Below are positions 1-8,823 of a DNA stretch of 8,823 nucleotides, piece by piece. The notes beneath the pieces are model-generated. The model had not been told where the DNA came from and made no database searches. It saw only the letters and a program-made list of their open reading frames with translations. Made by a program: the position numbers and the translations under genes. How positions within the stretch are numbered: the stretch's first letter is position 1; each line of letters begins with the position of its first letter. The DNA is from Escherichia coli (GTDB taxonomy: Bacteria > Pseudomonadota > Gammaproteobacteria > Enterobacterales > Enterobacteriaceae), in assembly GCF_003334815.1 (NCBI RefSeq), contig NZ_QOWO01000064.1; one strand, 5' to 3'.

Positions 1-46
1 AACGGTGAACAATATCACCCTGGGTAAGTATCCGGAGGCGAAATGA
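1..46 (+). CDS. 3' end of a CbtA/YeeV-family toxin gene (partial; 5' portion lies outside the window)
   Basis: The frame starting at nt 2 translates TVNNITLGKYPEAK followed by TGA at 44-46. This C-terminal tail matches what I recall for CbtA/YeeV/YkfI/YpjF-type toxins of E. coli CP4-type cryptic prophages. The stop overlaps the next start codon (ATGA at 43-46). Recognition is from memory of a 14-residue tail only. Confidence 0.5.
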   Translation, partial: TVNNITLGKYPEAK

Positions 47-534
47 TGAAACTGGCCCTGACACTGGAAGCCGACAGTGTTAACGTACAGGCACTGAATA
101 TGGGGCGAATTGTCGTTGACATTGATGGTGTTAATCTCGCTGAACTGATTAACATGGTCTGCGATAACGGCTACTCCCTTCGTGTTGTTGATGAATCTGA
201 CCGGACCTCAGCAGACTGCACGCCACCATTTGTTGCCCTTACCGGCATACGCTGCAGTACCGCACATATCACGGAAACGGACAACGCCTGGCTGTACTCG
301 CTGTCACACCAGACCAGTGACTTCGGTGAATCAGAATGGATTCATTTTACCGGTACCGGTTATCTGTTACGTACCGATGCGTGGTCATACCCGGTTCTGC
401 GGCTTAAGCGCCTGGGGCTGTCAAAAACGTTCCGTCGTCTGGTCGTCACACTCATCCGGCGTTATGGTGTCAGTCTCATTCATCTGGATGCCAGTGCCGG
501 ATATCTGCCGGGTTTACCCACTTTCGACTGGTAA
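43..534 (+). CDS. Hypothetical protein of the kind encoded immediately downstream of cbtA-family toxin genes (YeeW-like); family assignment uncertain
   Basis: 163-aa ORF in the six-frame track. Its ATG at 43 overlaps the toxin stop by 4 nt, which is typical of coupled prophage modules. The product looks like a normal mixed-composition protein and resembles proteins I recall downstream of cbtA paralogs. GC about 50-58% by hand count on two lines. Confidence 0.6.
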   Translation: MMKLALTLEADSVNVQALNMGRIVVDIDGVNLAELINMVCDNGYSLRVVDESDRTSADCTPPFVALTGIRCSTAHITETDNAWLYSLSHQTSDFGESEWIHFTGTGYLLRTDAWSYPVLRLKRLGLSKTFRRLVVTLIRRYGVSLIHLDASAGYLPGLPTFDW

Positions 535-550
535 TCCGGAAATTCACAAC

Positions 551-727
551 ATGAAATCATTAACCACGGAAACAGCGCTGGATATTCTGATTACGTGGCT
601 GCAGGACAATATCGACTGCGAATCGGGAATTATCTTCGACAACGATGAGGATAAAACAGGTTCGGCAGCACTGTTGCGCTGTATCGAACAGGCCAGGGAG
701 GGTATCCGTACCCTGCGCCAACAGTAA
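551..727 (+). CDS. Small DUF957-like protein (58 aa)
   Basis: ATG at 551, 16 nt after the preceding stop, translates MKSLTTETALDILITWLQDNIDCESGIIFDNDEDKTGSAALLRCIEQAREGIRTLRQQ and ends at TAA 725-727. It resembles the small DUF957 proteins I recall in CP4-type islands. The track ORF 182..727 is the same frame extended upstream into the 43..534 gene, and I treat that 5' part as spurious. No clear Shine-Dalgarno sequence. Confidence 0.55.
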   Translation: MKSLTTETALDILITWLQDNIDCESGIIFDNDEDKTGSAALLRCIEQAREGIRTLRQQ

Positions 728-778
728 CTTTTGCACCAGAACCAGTGAAGATCACTCACCCGATTTCACTTCCCTGAC

Positions 779-809
779 GTCAGCCTGAACACGGCTGGCG
801 TTTTCATTT
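779..809 (+). terminator. Candidate rho-independent terminator after the DUF957-like gene
   Basis: Stem 779-785 (GTCAGCC) pairs with 793-799 (GGCTGGC), giving 7 bp with one G-U pair, around a 7-nt loop. It is followed by the T-rich tail GTTTTCATTT at 800-809. Confidence 0.45.
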
Positions 810-826
810 ATAAACAGAAAGGAAAA

Positions 827-985
827 ATGATGATGTCAGATACCACACTCTCCCGCCCGGAGGTGGTCAGCGGGCATACGGACGTTATCTATTCCACCTC
901 AGTCTGCCACATTCTGGCTGTACGAAAGAGTACACTGTTGCCAATCGACACAATTATCCGGCATCAAGTAAGCGATATCAGTTAA
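827..985 (+). CDS. Candidate small ORF (52 aa), function unknown
   Basis: ATG at 827 is preceded by AAAGGA at 818-823, a reasonable Shine-Dalgarno spacing. It translates MMMSDTTLSRPEVVSGHTDVIYSTSVCHILAVRKSTLLPIDTIIRHQVSDIS and stops at TAA 983-985. It is absent from the supplied ORF track, presumably for being below the length cut-off, and I do not recognise the family. Confidence 0.25.
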   Translation: MMMSDTTLSRPEVVSGHTDVIYSTSVCHILAVRKSTLLPIDTIIRHQVSDIS

Positions 986-1151
986 CCGATATAGATGGGG
1001 AAGATGCTTTTATCCGGATTGGTTCTATCGCGATGGTGCGAGTACCACTTGATGCAATGGAGCCTGTCGAGGAAGATGACGAGTAACAGAGCTCGGTATC
1101 TCAATCAGGACCTGATTGTCCTGGTTCGATGCCGAAAACCAGTGATTTTTC

Positions 1152-1173
1152 GTGTTGGTATCTGTGTTGGTAT
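1152..1173. repeat. Tandem direct repeat of GTGTTGGTAT (two perfect copies, period 12), with a partial third copy GGTGTTG at 1179-1185
   Basis: Read directly from the sequence: GTGTTGGTAT at 1152-1161 and again at 1164-1173. It lies just upstream of the candidate promoter at 1193-1220. Confidence 0.6.
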
Positions 1174-1192
1174 AGGATGGTGTTGTTTATTA

Positions 1193-1220
1193 TTAACAAT
1201 TTTAAATCATGAGGTTAAAT
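1193..1220 (+). promoter_or_regulatory. Candidate sigma70-type promoter (-35 TTAACA, 16-nt spacer, -10 TTAAAT)
   Basis: TTAACA at 1193-1198 matches TTGACA at 5 of 6 positions and TTAAAT at 1215-1220 matches TATAAT at 4 of 6. Judged by eye only; the predicted start site is near 1227-1230. Confidence 0.2.
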
Positions 1221-1263
1221 CGCATGTTTGAGTCCGGTCTTCGCACCACATCGTATGCAAATC

Positions 1264-1288
1264 GAGTCGCTCAAGGGCGGCTTTTTTT
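1264..1288 (+). terminator. Candidate rho-independent terminator
   Basis: Stem GTCGC (1266-1270) pairs with GCGGC (1277-1281) around the loop TCAAGG, and is followed immediately by a run of seven T at 1282-1288. The stem is short at 5 bp, extendable by A-U and G-U pairs into the T-run. Confidence 0.4.
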
Positions 1289-1636
1289 GTACCTGTGTTT
1301 TCACTACTTTGTTTGCATGTAACGCTGATAATCTAAGAACTTCGGAAGCCCCATTTCCATCAATGATGTTCATTCATCATCCTGAAAATTAAGTAGATAT
1401 AAAACTTCATTGCCTTGGTCTAATGGCACAGAAATAGATTGCATTTGGCGAGTGGCATTCTTAGTGCGTCGTTGTTTAGTCATGAAACGATGCGTAAAAT
1501 TGCTGATTTTATGTGTCAAAGTCCCGCAACCGGAGATGGCCTTACTTCAATGATCAACCACTATTGACGTATCCTTTTAATATCTTGATTCAATTCAGCA
1601 GGTTATCGTCCAAAGTACAGCGAAGAGAGAGAAAAG

Positions 1637-4528
1637 ATGATTGGTACAACACCTTATCATGCGAAATATTTTGCGCATGAACTTTCCATTCTTCATTCAA
1701 ACAATGGGGTGGACCGTCTGTCTCAATCGCTGTTTGATGCAAGCGTAGATCTAAACCCTCATCAAATTGAGGCGGCTCTTTTTGCTATCGAAAATCCGCT
1801 AAGCAAAGGTGTTGTGCTTGCCGATGAAGTTGGTTTGGGTAAAACCATTGAAGCTGGACTAGTGCTTTGCCAGTTGTGGGCTGAAAGAAAACGTAAACTG
1901 TTGATCATTTGTCCTGCTTCACTGCGTCGCCAATGGGCGAGCGAGTTACAGGAAAAGTTCAATCTACCTTCTCAGGTGTTGGACGCGAAAATGTATAGCC
2001 AGCTTCAAAAAGAAGGGATCCATAATCCCTTAAATAATAAATCGATCACTATCATGTCATACCACTATGCTGCTCGGTTAGAAGAGAAATTGGTGGCTGA
2101 AATGTGGGATCTGGTTGTTATCGACGAAGCCCATAAACTGCGTAATGCTCATCGAGAAAGCAACAAAATGGGGCAAGCGTTAAAGCGTGCGCTTGATGGG
2201 CGGAAGAAATTACTACTGACCGCAACGCCTTTACAGAACTCGTTGATGGAACTGTATGGCATGTCGACGCTTATAGATGAACATACCTTCGGCGAAGTTA
2301 AAGCGTTCAGAAAGCAATATATGCAGGCAGATAGCGATATTGCGGAGTTGAAGGGGCGATTGTCGCGTTTTATCAAACGAACTCTACGCAAGAATGTGCT
2401 GGAGTATATCAAGTATACAGAACGTAAAGCGATCACTATTCCTTTCTATCCGAGCGAACAGGAGCAGGATCTTTATGAACGCGTACAAAAATTGCTTGAA
2501 CGTGAGGATAGCTATGCCTTACCAAAACGACACCGGCATCTGACGGGGCTTATACTCAGAAAACTACTTTCCTCAAGTACGAAAGCCGTATTGAATAACT
2601 TGCAGATCCTTAAGACTCGTTTAGAAAGGTTAAAGCTGGAAGGTATCGTTGAAGATGATATGGACATCATCCAACAGATCATAATGGATGATGATCTTGA
2701 AGATGACATCGTTGAAGATGCCGAATCAGTAGCGCCAGATACAGAGTGCAAATCTGTGGATTCAGATGCGCTTCAGGCAGAAATCAATGAGCTGGAATCA
2801 CTCATTGTTAAAGCAGAACAGATTGGCACTGATACCAAATCAAAAGAGTTGCTTTCTGGCCTGGAGCAAGGTTTTGCACAGCTTGCCGAAATGGGGGCTG
2901 CAAAAAAAGTCATCATCTTCACGGAGTCGATGCGAACTCAACAGTACCTTGCACATTTTCTGGAAAACAATGGCTACCAGGGAAAAGTAGTAACCTTTAG
3001 TGGCACAAACAATACACCGCAGGCAAACAAGATCTACCAGCAATGGCGCGAGGAATATCAGGGATCTTCTCGTATTACCGGGTCGGCGCAAATTGATAAA
3101 CGCTCGGCTTTGATCGACCACTTCAAAGATCATGCTGAAATCATGATAGCTACAGAAGCTGCAGCTGAAGGGGTGAACCTGCAATTTTGTTCGCTACTGA
3201 TCAATTACGATTTACCCTGGAACCCACAACGCATTGAGCAGCGTATTGGACGTTGTCACCGATACGGGCAAAAATTTGATGTGGTTGTTATTAACTTCCT
3301 CAATCAGCGAAACCAGGCCGATCAACGCGTTCTTGAACTCTTAACTGAAAAGTTCAGCCTGTTTGATGGCGTGTTTGGCGCATCGGATAGTGTGCTTGGC
3401 AGCATAGAAAATGGTGTGGATTTTGAAAAAAGGATCCAGTCAATTTATGAGTCATGCCGTACCCCCGAGGAGATAGAGCTGGCTTTTGAAAGGTTGCAGA
3501 AAGAGCTGGAAGATGAAATCAATCTCAAGATGCAGAAGACGCAAGAACAGTTGCTTGAGCATTTTGATGAAGATATTCACGATATCCTTAAAATAAGGCT
3601 TGATGAAGCTCGGGAGCGCCTGGATAAAGTCGGTCGTTGGTTTTGGGCCGTGACCTGTCAGCAGCTCAAACAATATGCTGATTTTGATCATGAGCATCAT
3701 CGTTTCACTTTACGTGAATCAGTCAATGAACTGCCTGTCGGGCAGTACCAGCTGTTGCGCAAAGATGGCAGGCAAAATAGTGCGTTACAAATGCAGGATC
3801 ACCACAGTTTTGCATATCGGATCAATCATCCACTGGGTGAGTACGTCATTGACGGAGCTAAAGCCCAGGAGACGAAAACAGCTGAAGTCATCTTCGATTA
3901 CAGTAACCACACAACGAAAGTTTCGGTGGCTGAGCAGCTGAAAGGGCAATCAGGATGGTTAACACTAAATTTGCTTACTGTTGATGCGTTTAACAGGCAG
4001 CAATTTTTAGTCTTTACCGCGAAAACTGACAACGGACGTGTGGTAGATGGTGAAGCTTGTAAACGTCTGTTCAACTTGTCTGCAATAACCAACGAAAAGC
4101 TGGATAATTCGGCAAGTTTAGATGCATTACCTGATGACTTGATCTTACTCAAGAACAGGCAAATTGACGCCAGGCTTGCAGAAGTTTTGGAGCAGAACAA
4201 TGTCCTTTTTGAAGCGGAAAGAGATAAGCTGGAAAAATGGGCTGAAGACATGATCTTTGCGGCGGAAGAAGCATTACGCGATACCAAAATGCAAATCAAG
4301 TCGTTGAAGCGAGAAGCCAGGCTGGCGCAATCGATCGAAGAACAAAAGCAAAACCAGGAAAAGCTTAAGCTCCTGGAACGGCAGCAGAAGCGCCAACGTA
4401 TGGAAATTTTTGACATTGAAGATGAGATCGCCGACAAGCGGGATGAACTCATCAGTGCCCTTGAAGAGCGGATGAAGCAAAAGACGGATATCACCGAGCT
4501 GTTTACCATCCGCTGGAAAGTTATTTAA
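1637..4528 (+). CDS. SNF2-family (DEAH-type superfamily 2) helicase/ATPase, 963 aa; candidate DrmD-like component
   Basis: Motifs are visible in the translation: Walker A GLGKT (nt 1832-1846), motif II DEAH (2123-2134), the SNF2-type motif III TATPLQN, and in the C-terminal lobe motif V IATEAAAEGVNLQ and motif VI QRIGRCHRYGQ (3239-3271). A purine-rich Shine-Dalgarno-like stretch (AGAGAGAGAAAAG) precedes the ATG. GC about 43-47% by hand count. Confidence 0.9.
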   Translation: MIGTTPYHAKYFAHELSILHSNNGVDRLSQSLFDASVDLNPHQIEAALFAIENPLSKGVVLADEVGLGKTIEAGLVLCQLWAERKRKLLIICPASLRRQWASELQEKFNLPSQVLDAKMYSQLQKEGIHNPLNNKSITIMSYHYAARLEEKLVAEMWDLVVIDEAHKLRNAHRESNKMGQALKRALDGRKKLLLTATPLQNSLMELYGMSTLIDEHTFGEVKAFRKQYMQADSDIAELKGRLSRFIKRTLRKNVLEYIKYTERKAITIPFYPSEQEQDLYERVQKLLEREDSYALPKRHRHLTGLILRKLLSSSTKAVLNNLQILKTRLERLKLEGIVEDDMDIIQQIIMDDDLEDDIVEDAESVAPDTECKSVDSDALQAEINELESLIVKAEQIGTDTKSKELLSGLEQGFAQLAEMGAAKKVIIFTESMRTQQYLAHFLENNGYQGKVVTFSGTNNTPQANKIYQQWREEYQGSSRITGSAQIDKRSALIDHFKDHAEIMIATEAAAEGVNLQFCSLLINYDLPWNPQRIEQRIGRCHRYGQKFDVVVINFLNQRNQADQRVLELLTEKFSLFDGVFGASDSVLGSIENGVDFEKRIQSIYESCRTPEEIELAFERLQKELEDEINLKMQKTQEQLLEHFDEDIHDILKIRLDEARERLDKVGRWFWAVTCQQLKQYADFDHEHHRFTLRESVNELPVGQYQLLRKDGRQNSALQMQDHHSFAYRINHPLGEYVIDGAKAQETKTAEVIFDYSNHTTKVSVAEQLKGQSGWLTLNLLTVDAFNRQQFLVFTAKTDNGRVVDGEACKRLFNLSAITNEKLDNSASLDALPDDLILLKNRQIDARLAEVLEQNNVLFEAERDKLEKWAEDMIFAAEEALRDTKMQIKSLKREARLAQSIEEQKQNQEKLKLLERQQKRQRMEIFDIEDEIADKRDELISALEERMKQKTDITELFTIRWKVI

Positions 4529-4548
4529 TTGATTTGAAAGAGAAAATA

Positions 4549-7500
4549 ATGAGTAAGTACAACGAATTAGTTAAGAAGCTAAAAGAAATTTTTCAGATTG
4601 ATCGACCAGAACTGGATTTCGGTATTTATCGTATTTTAAATGCGCGTGCTGATGAAATTAACGACTATCTGGATAATAAGCTGAAGGCCAAAATCCAGTC
4701 TGCGCTGGCGGATGCAGGAAATGCCAATAAATCAGAATTAGAACATCAGTTGCAACTGACAATAAAAGCGGCAACTGATGCGGGTGTAGACCCTGCTGAT
4801 AGCCCAAAAGTACAGGAGCTTAAAAAGCAACTGGCGGCTATGGCATCCGGAGCAAATGAGCATGAAAATGCAGTATTTTCCCATCTGCTCACTTTCTTTT
4901 CGCGTTATTATGACAACGGCGATTTTATCAGCAAACGCCGTTATAAAGGTAATACCTACGCCATCCCCTATTCTGGCGAAGAAGTGATGTTGCACTGGGC
5001 AAATAAGGACCAGTACTACATTAAAAGCGGTGAAAACTTCGCTAATTATTCGTTCAAATTAGAAGACGGTCGTAAAGTTAGCTTTAAATTGCTCGCAGCG
5101 GACACAGCAAAAGATAACCGTAAAGATAATGAATTAGATCGCTGCTTTGTACTTATTGAGCCACATGTTCGTACCAAAATTGATGAAGAAGGCGATGAGT
5201 ACGAACAAGAATATAAGCCAGTAGAAGTGGTGAAAAACTCATCTGTGGTGGACGGTAAACTCGTTGAAACAGAAGAGTTAGTTATTCACTTCGAATATAA
5301 GGCAATGAAAAAGGGCACTAAGCAGGATGCTTTAGTACAGTCCGCCATTTCAACAATTCTGGCAGATAAAACAGTTCAACAGCATTGGGTTGATCTTGCT
5401 AAACGTGCGCCAACAGAAAAGAATCCGTCACGTACAGAGTTGGAGCGTCACCTTACAACTTATACCCAGCGTAATACAGCAGACTACTTTATCCATAAAG
5501 ATCTCGGTGGTTTTTTAACGAACGAACTGGATTTTTATATTAAAAATGAAGTAATGAATCTCGATAATGTGCAAAATGCAGAAGTGTTTGCCAATGTTGA
5601 GAAACAATTGCGCATGATTCAATGTTTGCGTGCTGTTGCGCTGGAACTCATTACATTTTTGGCACAAATTGAGAATTTCCAGAAAAAACTTTGGACTAAG
5701 AAGAAGTTTGTTGTTGGGCATGAGTATCTTGTGTCACTTTCAAATCTATCAGATTCGCTTTACGATAAAATTCGAACTAATAAAGGGCAACATGATGAAT
5801 GGGTTGAGCTTTATGCTGTAAATAAAATTCCTGGATATTCATTTCCATTCACAAAAGATTTCTTGTATAAAAATAATGGTATGATATTGGATACAAAATA
5901 TTTTGATCCGTCATTTAAGGAGGTTTTTTTAACAGAGTTAACTAATGTTGACGATAATTTAGATGGTCTCTTAATTAATTCAGATAATTATCAGGCCATT
6001 AATTTTTTGGAGGGGCGGTATAAGGACTCAATAGACTGTCTTTATATTGATCCTCCGTATAATACTGCGGCTTCAGAAATTTTATATAAAAATGAATATA
6101 AGCACAGCAGCTGGAATTCATTAATGTATGAAAGGATATCTAAAAGCTATAATTTACTGAAAATTTCTGCAATTAATTTTACCGCGATAGATCATGCGGA
6201 ATTATATAATCTTGGTAAGATCAAGGATGAAATCTATGGAGAACAAAACAGGATAGCAGTTGTTACTGTTCAGCATAATCCTAAAGGGCGTAACCAGGCA
6301 AAGTTCTTTTCTGAAAATACTGAGTATATGTTAGTATATGCTAAAGATTTTAATGCTGCTAACTTTAACTCTGTAGCTATCGATGAGGATGTGCTTTTAA
6401 CATTCACAGAACAAGATAATATAGGCCGTTATCGTTGGGAAAACTTTATTCGTGCAAGAACAAGTTGGTCCAGAGCAAATAGACCAAATAACTGGTATCC
6501 TTTATACGTCTCTTCCGACTTAAAATCAATTTCTGTTGATTATGTAGATGGGTATATCGAAGTATATCCTACAACTAAACAGGGGGATTTTTCGTGGAAA
6601 AATATTAAAGAATCATTTGTTGAATTAAATAAAGATAATTATTTTAAAGCTGTAAATGAAAATGGAGAAATAAAAATCTATCATAAATATAGGGAGCAGC
6701 AAGTCTTTAAAAATCTTTGGATTGATAAGAAATATCAGTCTGAGTTTAATGGTACAAATTTACTGAAAAACATACTTGGACAATCACTATTTGATTATCC
6801 GAAATCATTATATGCAGTACAAGATGCAATCAAAATGTCGACACCACACAATGGTATTGTATTGGACTATTTTGCAGGTTCAGGGACAACTTCTCATGCA
6901 GTAATAAACCTTAATAATTCAGATAATCTCTGTATGAAATTTATCAATGTTGAAATGGGTACTCATTTCAATACAGTAGTTATTCCAAGATTGAAGAAAA
7001 TTGGATATTCAAACTTATGGAAACAATGTAAACCAATCGGTAAACCTCAAAAAATGACTATCAAGTATTTGAAACTTGAAAGTTATGAGGATGCTCTTAA
7101 TAATATACAATTACGAAGTTATTCATTGCATCAGGATATTTTCGACATTTTGGTGGAAGATGTAAAATCAGAGTTTGCTCTTAAATATATTTTTGAAAAT
7201 GAATTATTTTATTCACTATTAAATACTGATAATTTCAAAAAACCATTTAACTACGAAATGGATATTGCGACGGATTCCGCCGGTGCCACTGAGCGTAAAA
7301 ACATCGATTTAGTTGAAACTTTCAATTATCTCATTGGCTTACATGTGAAATCCATCGAATCTGATATCGCACGTGGCTATGTGCGTATTGAAGGAACGCT
7401 GCCAACAGGCGAGCGTACCCTTATTCTGTGGCGCGATTGCGACAAGATCGGTTATGAAGAATTGAATAAATATGCCAACCGATTTGATTTGTATGCAAAA

Positions 7501-7653
7501 GAAAACACGTTCGACGTTATCTACATCAATGGCGATCATAACTTACCTACCGCCTTTACCGTTGATGAAGAAGACGGCGAGATTGTTCGTAGCCTGAAAA
7601 TTCGCCAGATCGAACCTGAATTCTTGAACCTGATGTTTGCGGAGGAGGTTTAA
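4549..7653 (+). CDS. Beta-class DNA methyltransferase (N6-adenine/N4-cytosine type, Type III Mod-like catalytic core) with a ~420-aa N-terminal extension, 1034 aa; candidate DrmMI-like component
   Basis: Motif IV DPPY (CLYIDPPYN, nt 6049-6060) precedes motif I FxGxG (LDYFAGSGTT, nt 6865-6891) by about 270 residues, which is the beta-class order with room for a target-recognition domain between them. I place the start at ATG 4549, preceded by AAAGAG; the track starts at an in-frame TTG at 4534, which remains a possible alternative. Only 20 nt separate it from the upstream stop. Confidence 0.88.
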   Translation: MSKYNELVKKLKEIFQIDRPELDFGIYRILNARADEINDYLDNKLKAKIQSALADAGNANKSELEHQLQLTIKAATDAGVDPADSPKVQELKKQLAAMASGANEHENAVFSHLLTFFSRYYDNGDFISKRRYKGNTYAIPYSGEEVMLHWANKDQYYIKSGENFANYSFKLEDGRKVSFKLLAADTAKDNRKDNELDRCFVLIEPHVRTKIDEEGDEYEQEYKPVEVVKNSSVVDGKLVETEELVIHFEYKAMKKGTKQDALVQSAISTILADKTVQQHWVDLAKRAPTEKNPSRTELERHLTTYTQRNTADYFIHKDLGGFLTNELDFYIKNEVMNLDNVQNAEVFANVEKQLRMIQCLRAVALELITFLAQIENFQKKLWTKKKFVVGHEYLVSLSNLSDSLYDKIRTNKGQHDEWVELYAVNKIPGYSFPFTKDFLYKNNGMILDTKYFDPSFKEVFLTELTNVDDNLDGLLINSDNYQAINFLEGRYKDSIDCLYIDPPYNTAASEILYKNEYKHSSWNSLMYERISKSYNLLKISAINFTAIDHAELYNLGKIKDEIYGEQNRIAVVTVQHNPKGRNQAKFFSENTEYMLVYAKDFNAANFNSVAIDEDVLLTFTEQDNIGRYRWENFIRARTSWSRANRPNNWYPLYVSSDLKSISVDYVDGYIEVYPTTKQGDFSWKNIKESFVELNKDNYFKAVNENGEIKIYHKYREQQVFKNLWIDKKYQSEFNGTNLLKNILGQSLFDYPKSLYAVQDAIKMSTPHNGIVLDYFAGSGTTSHAVINLNNSDNLCMKFINVEMGTHFNTVVIPRLKKIGYSNLWKQCKPIGKPQKMTIKYLKLESYEDALNNIQLRSYSLHQDIFDILVEDVKSEFALKYIFENELFYSLLNTDNFKKPFNYEMDIATDSAGATERKNIDLVETFNYLIGLHVKSIESDIARGYVRIEGTLPTGERTLILWRDCDKIGYEELNKYANRFDLYAKENTFDVIYINGDHNLPTAFTVDEEDGEIVRSLKIRQIEPEFLNLMFAEEV
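7641..7648 (+). promoter_or_regulatory. Shine-Dalgarno sequence GGAGGAGG for the third gene, embedded in the last codons of the methyltransferase gene
   Basis: GGAGGAGG lies 7 nt upstream of ATG 7656. The methyltransferase stop (7651-7653) and the next start are 2 nt apart, which suggests translational coupling. Confidence 0.6.
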
Positions 7654-7655
7654 GA

Positions 7656-8669
7656 ATGGCTAAAAAACCGACCACCGGTAAAGCAGTTAAAAAAGAGACT
7701 AACAGCAAGCTGAGCTTTCATAAACAACTGGTTTTAAACCGCTTTATGTTCCATTTTTTCAAAGATGGCACATTGCAAGGTTTGAAGAATCGGTTAGGCG
7801 AGGATCGCTTTGAAGGCATCCATGAAGATGGCCAAAGCTTGTTCTTCCATGAGCTGAGTAACTATTTATTCGAGGTCGATCTAATCGATCTCGATGAACT
7901 GCGTCGTTACGATCTCAATATCGTGCAGCACTGGCAGCAGATAACCGAGCACCGTAATCGTAAAGAAGACACTGTGCTGAACATGAAATATTTTCAGTAC
8001 TTGTCGCTTCTGTTTACCGAGATCTACCTGGACTGGTACTTCAATCGTAAACAGCAATTACTCGATGGGCTAAATAACGAGCTGGCAGCATACAATGCTG
8101 AAAATGATAAAACAGCAAAAGACCGGGCTAATCAGTTCAAATCATATGTTCTGGATGATTTGAATAAATTGGCATACTGGAACGCTACTGGTTCTGGTAA
8201 GACACTGCTATTACATGTCAATATTTTGCAATATTTACATTATTTCCAGAACGGTAATAGCCATCATTATCCGGATAAAATCATCCTGCTTACGCCGGAT
8301 GAACGCCTGTCGAAGCAACATTTAGATGAACTGGAAAACTCAGGGTTTACCCAATACCAGTTGTTCGATAAGAGTAAATCAGCGCCCTTCAAAGGCACGA
8401 TTGAAGTCATTGATATCAATAAACTTGATGATAAAATGGGCGACAAAACTGTTGCCGTTGAGGCATTTGAAGGCAACAATCTGGTCCTGATTGATGAAGG
8501 GCATAAAGGCACAGGAAGTGCTGCTGGTGCCTGGATGCGCCGTCGTGACAAGTTAACTCGTGACGGATTTGCGTTTGAATATTCAGCAACTTTTGGCCAG
8601 GCAGTAGCCGGTGGCAATAATGTGGAGGCAGTTGAAACAGAAATTCAGAAGAAAAAAGCAAAGCTCTGA
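7656..8669 (+). CDS. Helicase-like ATPase containing only the first RecA-like lobe (Type III Res-like / DrmA-like N-terminal region), 337 aa; probably truncated or disrupted
   Basis: Walker A ATGSGKT (nt 8184-8204; GSGKT at 8190-8204), motif II LIDEGH (DEGH at 8493-8504) and a motif III-like SAT (8583-8591) are present. The ORF stops at 8667-8669 with no motifs IV-VI and no arginine-finger region. The following 8670-8732 has stops in all three forward frames. Confidence 0.75.
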   Translation: MAKKPTTGKAVKKETNSKLSFHKQLVLNRFMFHFFKDGTLQGLKNRLGEDRFEGIHEDGQSLFFHELSNYLFEVDLIDLDELRRYDLNIVQHWQQITEHRNRKEDTVLNMKYFQYLSLLFTEIYLDWYFNRKQQLLDGLNNELAAYNAENDKTAKDRANQFKSYVLDDLNKLAYWNATGSGKTLLLHVNILQYLHYFQNGNSHHYPDKIILLTPDERLSKQHLDELENSGFTQYQLFDKSKSAPFKGTIEVIDINKLDDKMGDKTVAVEAFEGNNLVLIDEGHKGTGSAAGAWMRRRDKLTRDGFAFEYSATFGQAVAGGNNVEAVETEIQKKKAKL

Positions 8670-8823
8670 GAGATCCCCTCATAATTTCCCCAAAGCGTAA
8701 CCATGTGTGAATAAATTTTGAGCTAGTAGGGTTGCAGCCACGAGTAAGTCTTCCCTTGTTATTGTGTAGCCAGAATGCCGCAAAACTTCCATGCCTAAGC
8801 GAACTGTTGAGAGTACGTTTCGA

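Follow-up and report, generated by a model that had tools for sequence, protein, structure and literature searches.

The inside end of an IS10 element at the truncation point of a type III-like restriction gene in Escherichia coli

The window, by which is meant the whole 8,823-nt stretch of Escherichia coli DNA analysed in the present work, opens inside a cbtA-type toxin gene, of which it has the 3' end; the region 1-1636 further contains DUF5983 (43-534) and DUF957 (551-727) genes and two pseudogene fragments. E. coli genomes have several copies each of the genes of this region, which are typical of CP4-44-like prophage remnants. Positions 1637-8665 are occupied by a three-gene cassette consisting of an SNF2 helicase, a type III-like methyltransferase of 1034 or 1039 amino acids, and a putative restriction subunit, Res, which has 1126 amino acids when intact. 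Some 170-190 of the 5426 complete E. coli genomes compared carry the cassette, in an island that adjoins nanS/nanM/nanC-fimB. The longer methyltransferase is that of a mechanically called open reading frame starting at the TTG at 4534 (1039 aa), while RefSeq and public contigs place the start 15 nt downstream (1034 aa). Beyond the cassette lies the sequence with which this report is chiefly concerned. The features at and around the boundary are the following.

7656-8665, plus strand: the first 1010 nt of Res (codons 1-336 and 2 nt of the next), the gene for a type III-like restriction subunit, cut off by the insertion
8657-8665, no strand: target 9-mer AGCAAAGCT beside the IS10 end, the expected duplicate of which would lie at the far junction, outside the window
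8666-8823, minus strand: terminal 158 nt of IS10 (ISVsa5/IS10R-type), inside end; the element runs on past the end of the window
8666-8688, no strand: inside-end terminal inverted repeat (CTGAGAGATCCCCTCATAATTTC), 17 of whose first 23 positions match the opposite end of the full reference copy in reverse complement
8667-8669, plus strand: TGA closing the truncated Res reading frame, formed by IS10 nucleotides 2-4 (frame check)
8672-8675, no strand: GATC (Dam) site within the inside-end repeat, read from the sequence
8679-8823, minus strand: final 47 codons of the IS10 transposase gene and, at 8679-8681, its stop codon

The assignment of the host genes is based on comparison with profile models. 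The intact Res protein, annotated as a 'DEAD/DEAH box helicase family protein', matches the PADLOC model REase_III (PDLC03654) over its full length with 2306 bits and carries a Pfam ResIII/DEAD domain at residues 167-313; no NCBIfam model covers it. The gene immediately upstream (4534-7653) matches the PADLOC model MTase_III (PDLC03646) from end to end with 1552 bits. A Res gene beside a Mod methyltransferase gene is the arrangement that points to a restriction-modification system of type III-like character, and judged by these models the host gene would belong to such a system. The SNF2 helicase gene (1637-4528) resembles DISARM DrmD, with a score of 667 bits that is below the NCBIfam cut-off of 950.

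A sequence-only reading of the window had described the helicase gene as truncated, and in this it was right: the open reading frame at 7656-8669 has 337 codons, as against 1126 in the intact gene. The 1010 nt from 7656 to 8665 show 100% identity to the start of the 3381-nt gene for WP_001085530.1, which is carried by SCU-172, 2017.04.03CC and others. Window positions 1-8665 as a whole are identical to E. coli 2017.04.03CC at 8665 of 8665 positions, and the gene is whole there; the comparison with E. coli SCU-172 gives two mismatches, and the gene continues without interruption to 3381 nt (1126 aa). Any match at all to the Res gene occurs in 190 complete genomes, and in 165 of these a single place contains 80% or more of it; the gene is therefore intact as a rule and decayed in occasional cases. 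A natural gene end followed by intergenic DNA was rejected as an account of the boundary, since the intact gene runs 2371 nt further.

The position of the boundary can be stated to the nucleotide. In all comparisons the last position homologous to the host gene is 8665, and IS10 starts at 8666. In a three-way alignment the intact gene reads …AAAGCT|GCTTTTTGAAAC… and the window reads …AAAGCT|CTGAGAGATCC…; at this place the intact gene has the codons CTG CTT TTT..., and it goes on with unrelated sequence. The truncated reading frame consists of 336 native codons, a junction codon CTC (Leu, as is the native CTG) and the TGA supplied by IS10. The foreign sequence had previously been taken to begin at 8670, directly after the stop codon, a placement that has to be moved to 8666 because the stop codon is itself part of IS10. 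The earlier observation that no terminator hairpin follows this stop was borne out by a promoter and terminator scan, which placed none on the plus strand; its explanation is that the stop codon belongs to IS10.

The 158 nt from 8666 to 8823 are identical at 158 of 158 positions to copies of IS10/ISVsa5 (megablast against 5426 complete E. coli genomes). IS10 is an element of the IS4 family and a module of Tn10. Matches to the end occur at 4896 places in 1028 genomes, on chromosomes as well as plasmids, with a median of 2 places per positive genome, and copies with 100% identity are counted in 1017 of the 5426 genomes. The matching copies all carry the RefSeq annotation 'IS4-like element ISVsa5 family transposase', ISVsa5 being the database name for IS10R (PMC11064736). 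The sequence which had been left unassigned is thus the inside end of IS10, an already known and ordinary element that explains it precisely. It had been suspected of being either the edge of an inserted element running past the window or a structured RNA, and the first of these guesses has proved correct.

The exact limits of the element were taken from a reference copy that is fully bounded, namely positions 2501-3829 of L001, from strain 203740, where IS10 is inserted in a phage tail gene. This copy runs from CTGAGAGATCCCC… to …GGGGATTCATCAG over 1329 bp and is flanked by a 9-bp direct duplication, AGCTTGGCC. Its tips are imperfect inverted repeats of about 23 bp, with 17 of the first 23 positions matching. 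It carries a single gene of 402 amino acids (CDS 2514-3722), on the strand opposite to the plus strand of the window, and the product scores 401 bits against the NCBIfam model NF033591, 'IS4 family transposase' (cut-off 152). The Rfam family RNA-OUT (RF00240), the antisense RNA of the pIN-pOUT control region, is found at the other end, the outside end, of the reference copy (3715-3784, 98.8 bits), a position which projects to about 1050 nt past the end of the window.

Measured against this reference, the window sequence from 8660 to 8823 reads …aaagct|CTGAGAGATCCCCTCATAATTTCCCCAAAGCGTAACCATGTGTGAATAAATTTTGAGC…, and the IS10 match begins at 8666 with the first base of the element as set by the duplication-bounded copy. 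Window and reference agree at all 158 positions, which make up 12% of the element, and the terminal sequence characteristic of IS10 (CTGAGAGATCCCC… at the inside end) is present and identical to that of the annotated copies. Translation of the minus strand from 8822 to 8666 gives RNVLSTVRLGMEVLRHSGYTITREDLLVAATLLAQNLFTHGYALGKL, a stop and then four further codons, the protein ending in …FTHGYALGKL. The 47 C-terminal codons in the window are identical to those of the reference CDS at L001 2514-3722, and the catalytic part lies beyond 8823. The region had been labelled non-coding, a label which does not hold for the minus strand, since 8679-8823 is open there and encodes the C-terminus of the transposase. 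A search for a transposase reading frame and for terminal repeats had been recommended, and both were found, belonging to IS10.

Which of the two ends of the element is present follows from the position of the transposase gene. In the nomenclature of Tn10/IS10, the end which adjoins the stop codon of the transposase is the inside end, or IE (PMC5006887). The IS10 tip in the window is 13 nt beyond the transposase stop codon; since it adjoins that codon, it is the inside end. The GATC site contained in the inside-end repeat is of a kind to which a regulatory role is ascribed, methylation of GATC reportedly having been found by Roberts et al. in 1985, as cited in PMC5006887, to block use of the inside end.

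The sequence-only reading had raised a different possibility, namely that a group II intron or another structured RNA starts at the GTGTG at 8705, and the only evidence for this is the pentamer itself, which does lie at 8705-8709 and is compatible in form with the GTGYG consensus. The whole stretch including the pentamer is 100% IS10, however, and it lies inside the transposase coding sequence of the opposite strand. GTGYG occurs 10 times on the plus strand of the window, compared with about 12 occurrences expected from base composition, and is thus no more frequent than chance. The fold energy of 8666-8823 is no better than that of shuffled sequences (z = +1.14), and the structured-RNA part of the earlier guess fails on this count as well as on the outcome of the Rfam search. 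That search, which had also been recommended, returned no relevant family: no family reached its gathering score anywhere in the window, and at E<=10 the interval 8500-8823 gave two matches alone, both at chance level and to unrelated eukaryotic and archaeal small-RNA families. The plus strand of this stretch contains no reading frame for a reverse transcriptase or maturase. All three forward frames are closed within 8667-8732, as had been reported earlier, with stops at 8667, 8682, 8712, 8724 and 8727 in one, at 8708 in the second and at 8698 and 8719 in the third, and the sole open frame is that of the minus-strand transposase. On the grounds of the IS10 identity, the lack of an Rfam match, the shuffle-like fold and the chance-level GTGYG count, an intron or structured RNA was rejected, and the probability left to it is vanishingly small.

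The reading that accounts for the junction is that the inside end belongs to a copy of IS10 which transposed into codon 337 of the 1126-codon type III-like Res gene, in a chromosomal island, and it is almost certainly correct. In IS10/Tn10 transposition, which is of the cut-and-paste type, the DDE transposase binds both imperfect terminal repeats and excises the element; the target, a site resembling NGCTNAGCN, is cut with a 9-bp stagger and joined to the element, and the 9 bp become duplicated when the stagger is repaired. The 9-mer next to the IS10 end in the window, AGCAAAGCT, agrees with the classical target consensus at 5 of the 6 specified positions, and its fit to the relaxed consensus NRCNNNGYN (N-Pu-C-N-N-N-G-Py-N) is complete, both forms of the consensus being as quoted in PMC4574204. 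A set of megablast matches to IS10 on unrelated plasmids (H66-H74) extends 8-23 nt upstream of the element into the A-rich flank, within 8643-8665, at lower identity; this extension into the host flank probably results from chance combined with a shared target-site preference.

Under this model, a copy of IS10 would have entered Res codon 337 by cut-and-paste transposition, with duplication of 9 bp. As read from the sequence, the Res frame runs two bases into IS10 and halts at the TGA which the element supplies, and an N-terminal stub of 337 amino acids is left. The stub left by the insertion contains the first helicase lobe only, and the other 790 residues are separated from it; the SNF2-like and methyltransferase genes upstream of the insertion are intact. 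The predicted outcome for the locus is a restriction-minus and probably modification-plus state.

Since the far junction was not recovered, simple insertion and duplication of the 9 bp are inferred. The junction was reconstructed by joining the IS10 outside end, AGCAAAGCT and the rest of Res (L002 10011-12381). In the reconstruction, a reading frame which starts at an ATG 56 nt inside the outside end passes out of IS10 and continues in phase through the 790 Res codons that are left, for a total of 811 aa. The outside end of IS10 carries an outward promoter, pOUT. Exact look-up in the public gene catalogue found none of the predicted downstream products of 811, 804, 802 and 799 aa on record; look-ups of this kind demand exact identity over the full length, and their negative results are consequently weak evidence. 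The 780-aa downstream reading frame is on record only in contigs where it lies beside IS1 and IS5 ends.

These observations bear on a competing account in which the IS10 end is real and the event is not a simple one, the end being either an arm of a Tn10-derived structure produced in an inside-out event or else a scar left by an IS10-promoted deletion or inversion next to it, so that the rest of Res would not lie directly past the element. It is established knowledge that inside ends are used in the inside-out events and rearrangements of Tn10, and host DNA abuts the inside end in the window; that every predicted far-junction product is off record, and that the 780-aa frame has been seen only beside the two other elements, are also in keeping with this account. 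A solitary IS10, however, transposes each time by means of one inside and one outside end, and solitary copies are common, as indicated by the median of two places per positive genome. The reference copy is an example of simple insertion with a 9-bp duplication, the flanking 9-mer in the window fits the target consensus, and the absence of the predicted products counts for little when exact full-length identity is needed to find them. A rearrangement or Tn10-derived arm is accordingly considered unlikely, and simple insertion is the preferred reading.

The junction between Res and IS10 is present in at least five public contigs from different samples, located by exact look-up of the 337-aa product.

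NCBI GCA_002190155.1, contig LYBH01000008.1 (L003): corresponds to window 57-8686
Logan SRR3823859 (L004): Res/IS10 junction
Logan SRR1060510 (L005): Res/IS10 junction
NCBI GCA_965212685.1 (L008): Res/IS10 junction
Logan ERR14335422 (L009): Res/IS10 junction

The five contigs are 99.9-100% identical to the window, and each of them breaks 16-121 nt into IS10, so that none reaches further into the element than the window does. A megablast search with 8200-8823 located the junction in none of the complete E. coli genomes or PLSDB plasmids, and the exact 35-nt junction gave 0 matches in GTDB representative genomes and 0 in JGI metagenome contigs. If the window were a chimera, in which the Res gene had been misjoined at the read or graph level to an IS10 copy from elsewhere, it would be natural for it to end in a multi-copy repeat, where misjoins are commonest, and for the junction to appear in no complete genome. 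Yet the identical junction is shared by five contigs from different samples and assemblers, and it coincides precisely with the terminus of IS10 and with a target site that resembles the consensus. Independent assemblies share the junction, and a chimera is therefore ruled out for practical purposes, its probability being extremely low.

The most likely reason why the window ends inside IS10 is breakage of a short-read assembly at a repeat, a break which would arise because short-read assemblers fail to cross multi-copy insertion sequences. At the other extremity, the LYBH01000008.1 contig also begins within the repeated region, at window position 57, which suggests that the window is a whole short-read contig with repeats on both sides. 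Two uninterrupted contigs from metagenome and SRA data (L006 3229-3231 and L007 3043-3044) end 2-3 nt past the exact insertion point. The ends suggest a branch in the assembly graph of samples containing both intact and interrupted alleles, or they could be a coincidence.

Other insertion sequences have independently entered the same gene in other public samples. The end of an IS1 element joins Res 11 nt downstream of the IS10 site (L011, 1-40), the end of an IS5-family element joins it at TTAG, 20 nt downstream of the IS10 site (L010, 1-60), and strain E1654 has an IS1 near the 3' end of Res (L015 3371-4068). Three different insertion sequences within 23 bp of Res may mark a hot spot of insertion or of selection; the clustering of IS1 and IS5 is biased, because both were found only by way of the same 780-aa downstream reading frame. 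A stronger claim would be that the insertion does more than knock out the gene, in that a split or N-terminally replaced Res fragment is expressed, or that the cluster of insertion sequences represents a selected truncation point and not an effect of ascertainment. This is judged very unlikely.

For annotation, the value of the result is that it explains both a truncated helicase-type gene without a terminator and a contig that ends at a multi-copy repeat. For the lineage, it would mean that the restriction arm of the SNF2/methyltransferase/Res defence cassette has probably been lost and the methyltransferase kept. The case is a routine one of an insertion sequence inactivating a restriction gene, and it is possibly relevant to the uptake of foreign DNA by the strain.

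Compared with the 5' end of a group II intron, for which the consensus is GUGYG, the sequence has one GTGTG pentamer in common and differs in having no intron domains, Rfam match or reverse-transcriptase reading frame. Compared with a classical type III system, the cassette differs by its SNF2 partner, which is not a member of such systems. The IS1 and IS5 insertions in Res resemble the present case, as instances of the inactivation of restriction and defence genes by insertion sequences, in that the same gene is interrupted; they differ in that the elements are different and the events independent. The closest comparison is with IS10/IS10R itself, the module of Tn10: the visible 158 nt are alike, including the inside-end repeat, the GATC site and the last 47 transposase codons, and the target 9-mer in the window is of the preferred type. 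The visible part does not differ from IS10/IS10R in any respect, and it is the insertion site in the Res gene that is specific to this lineage.
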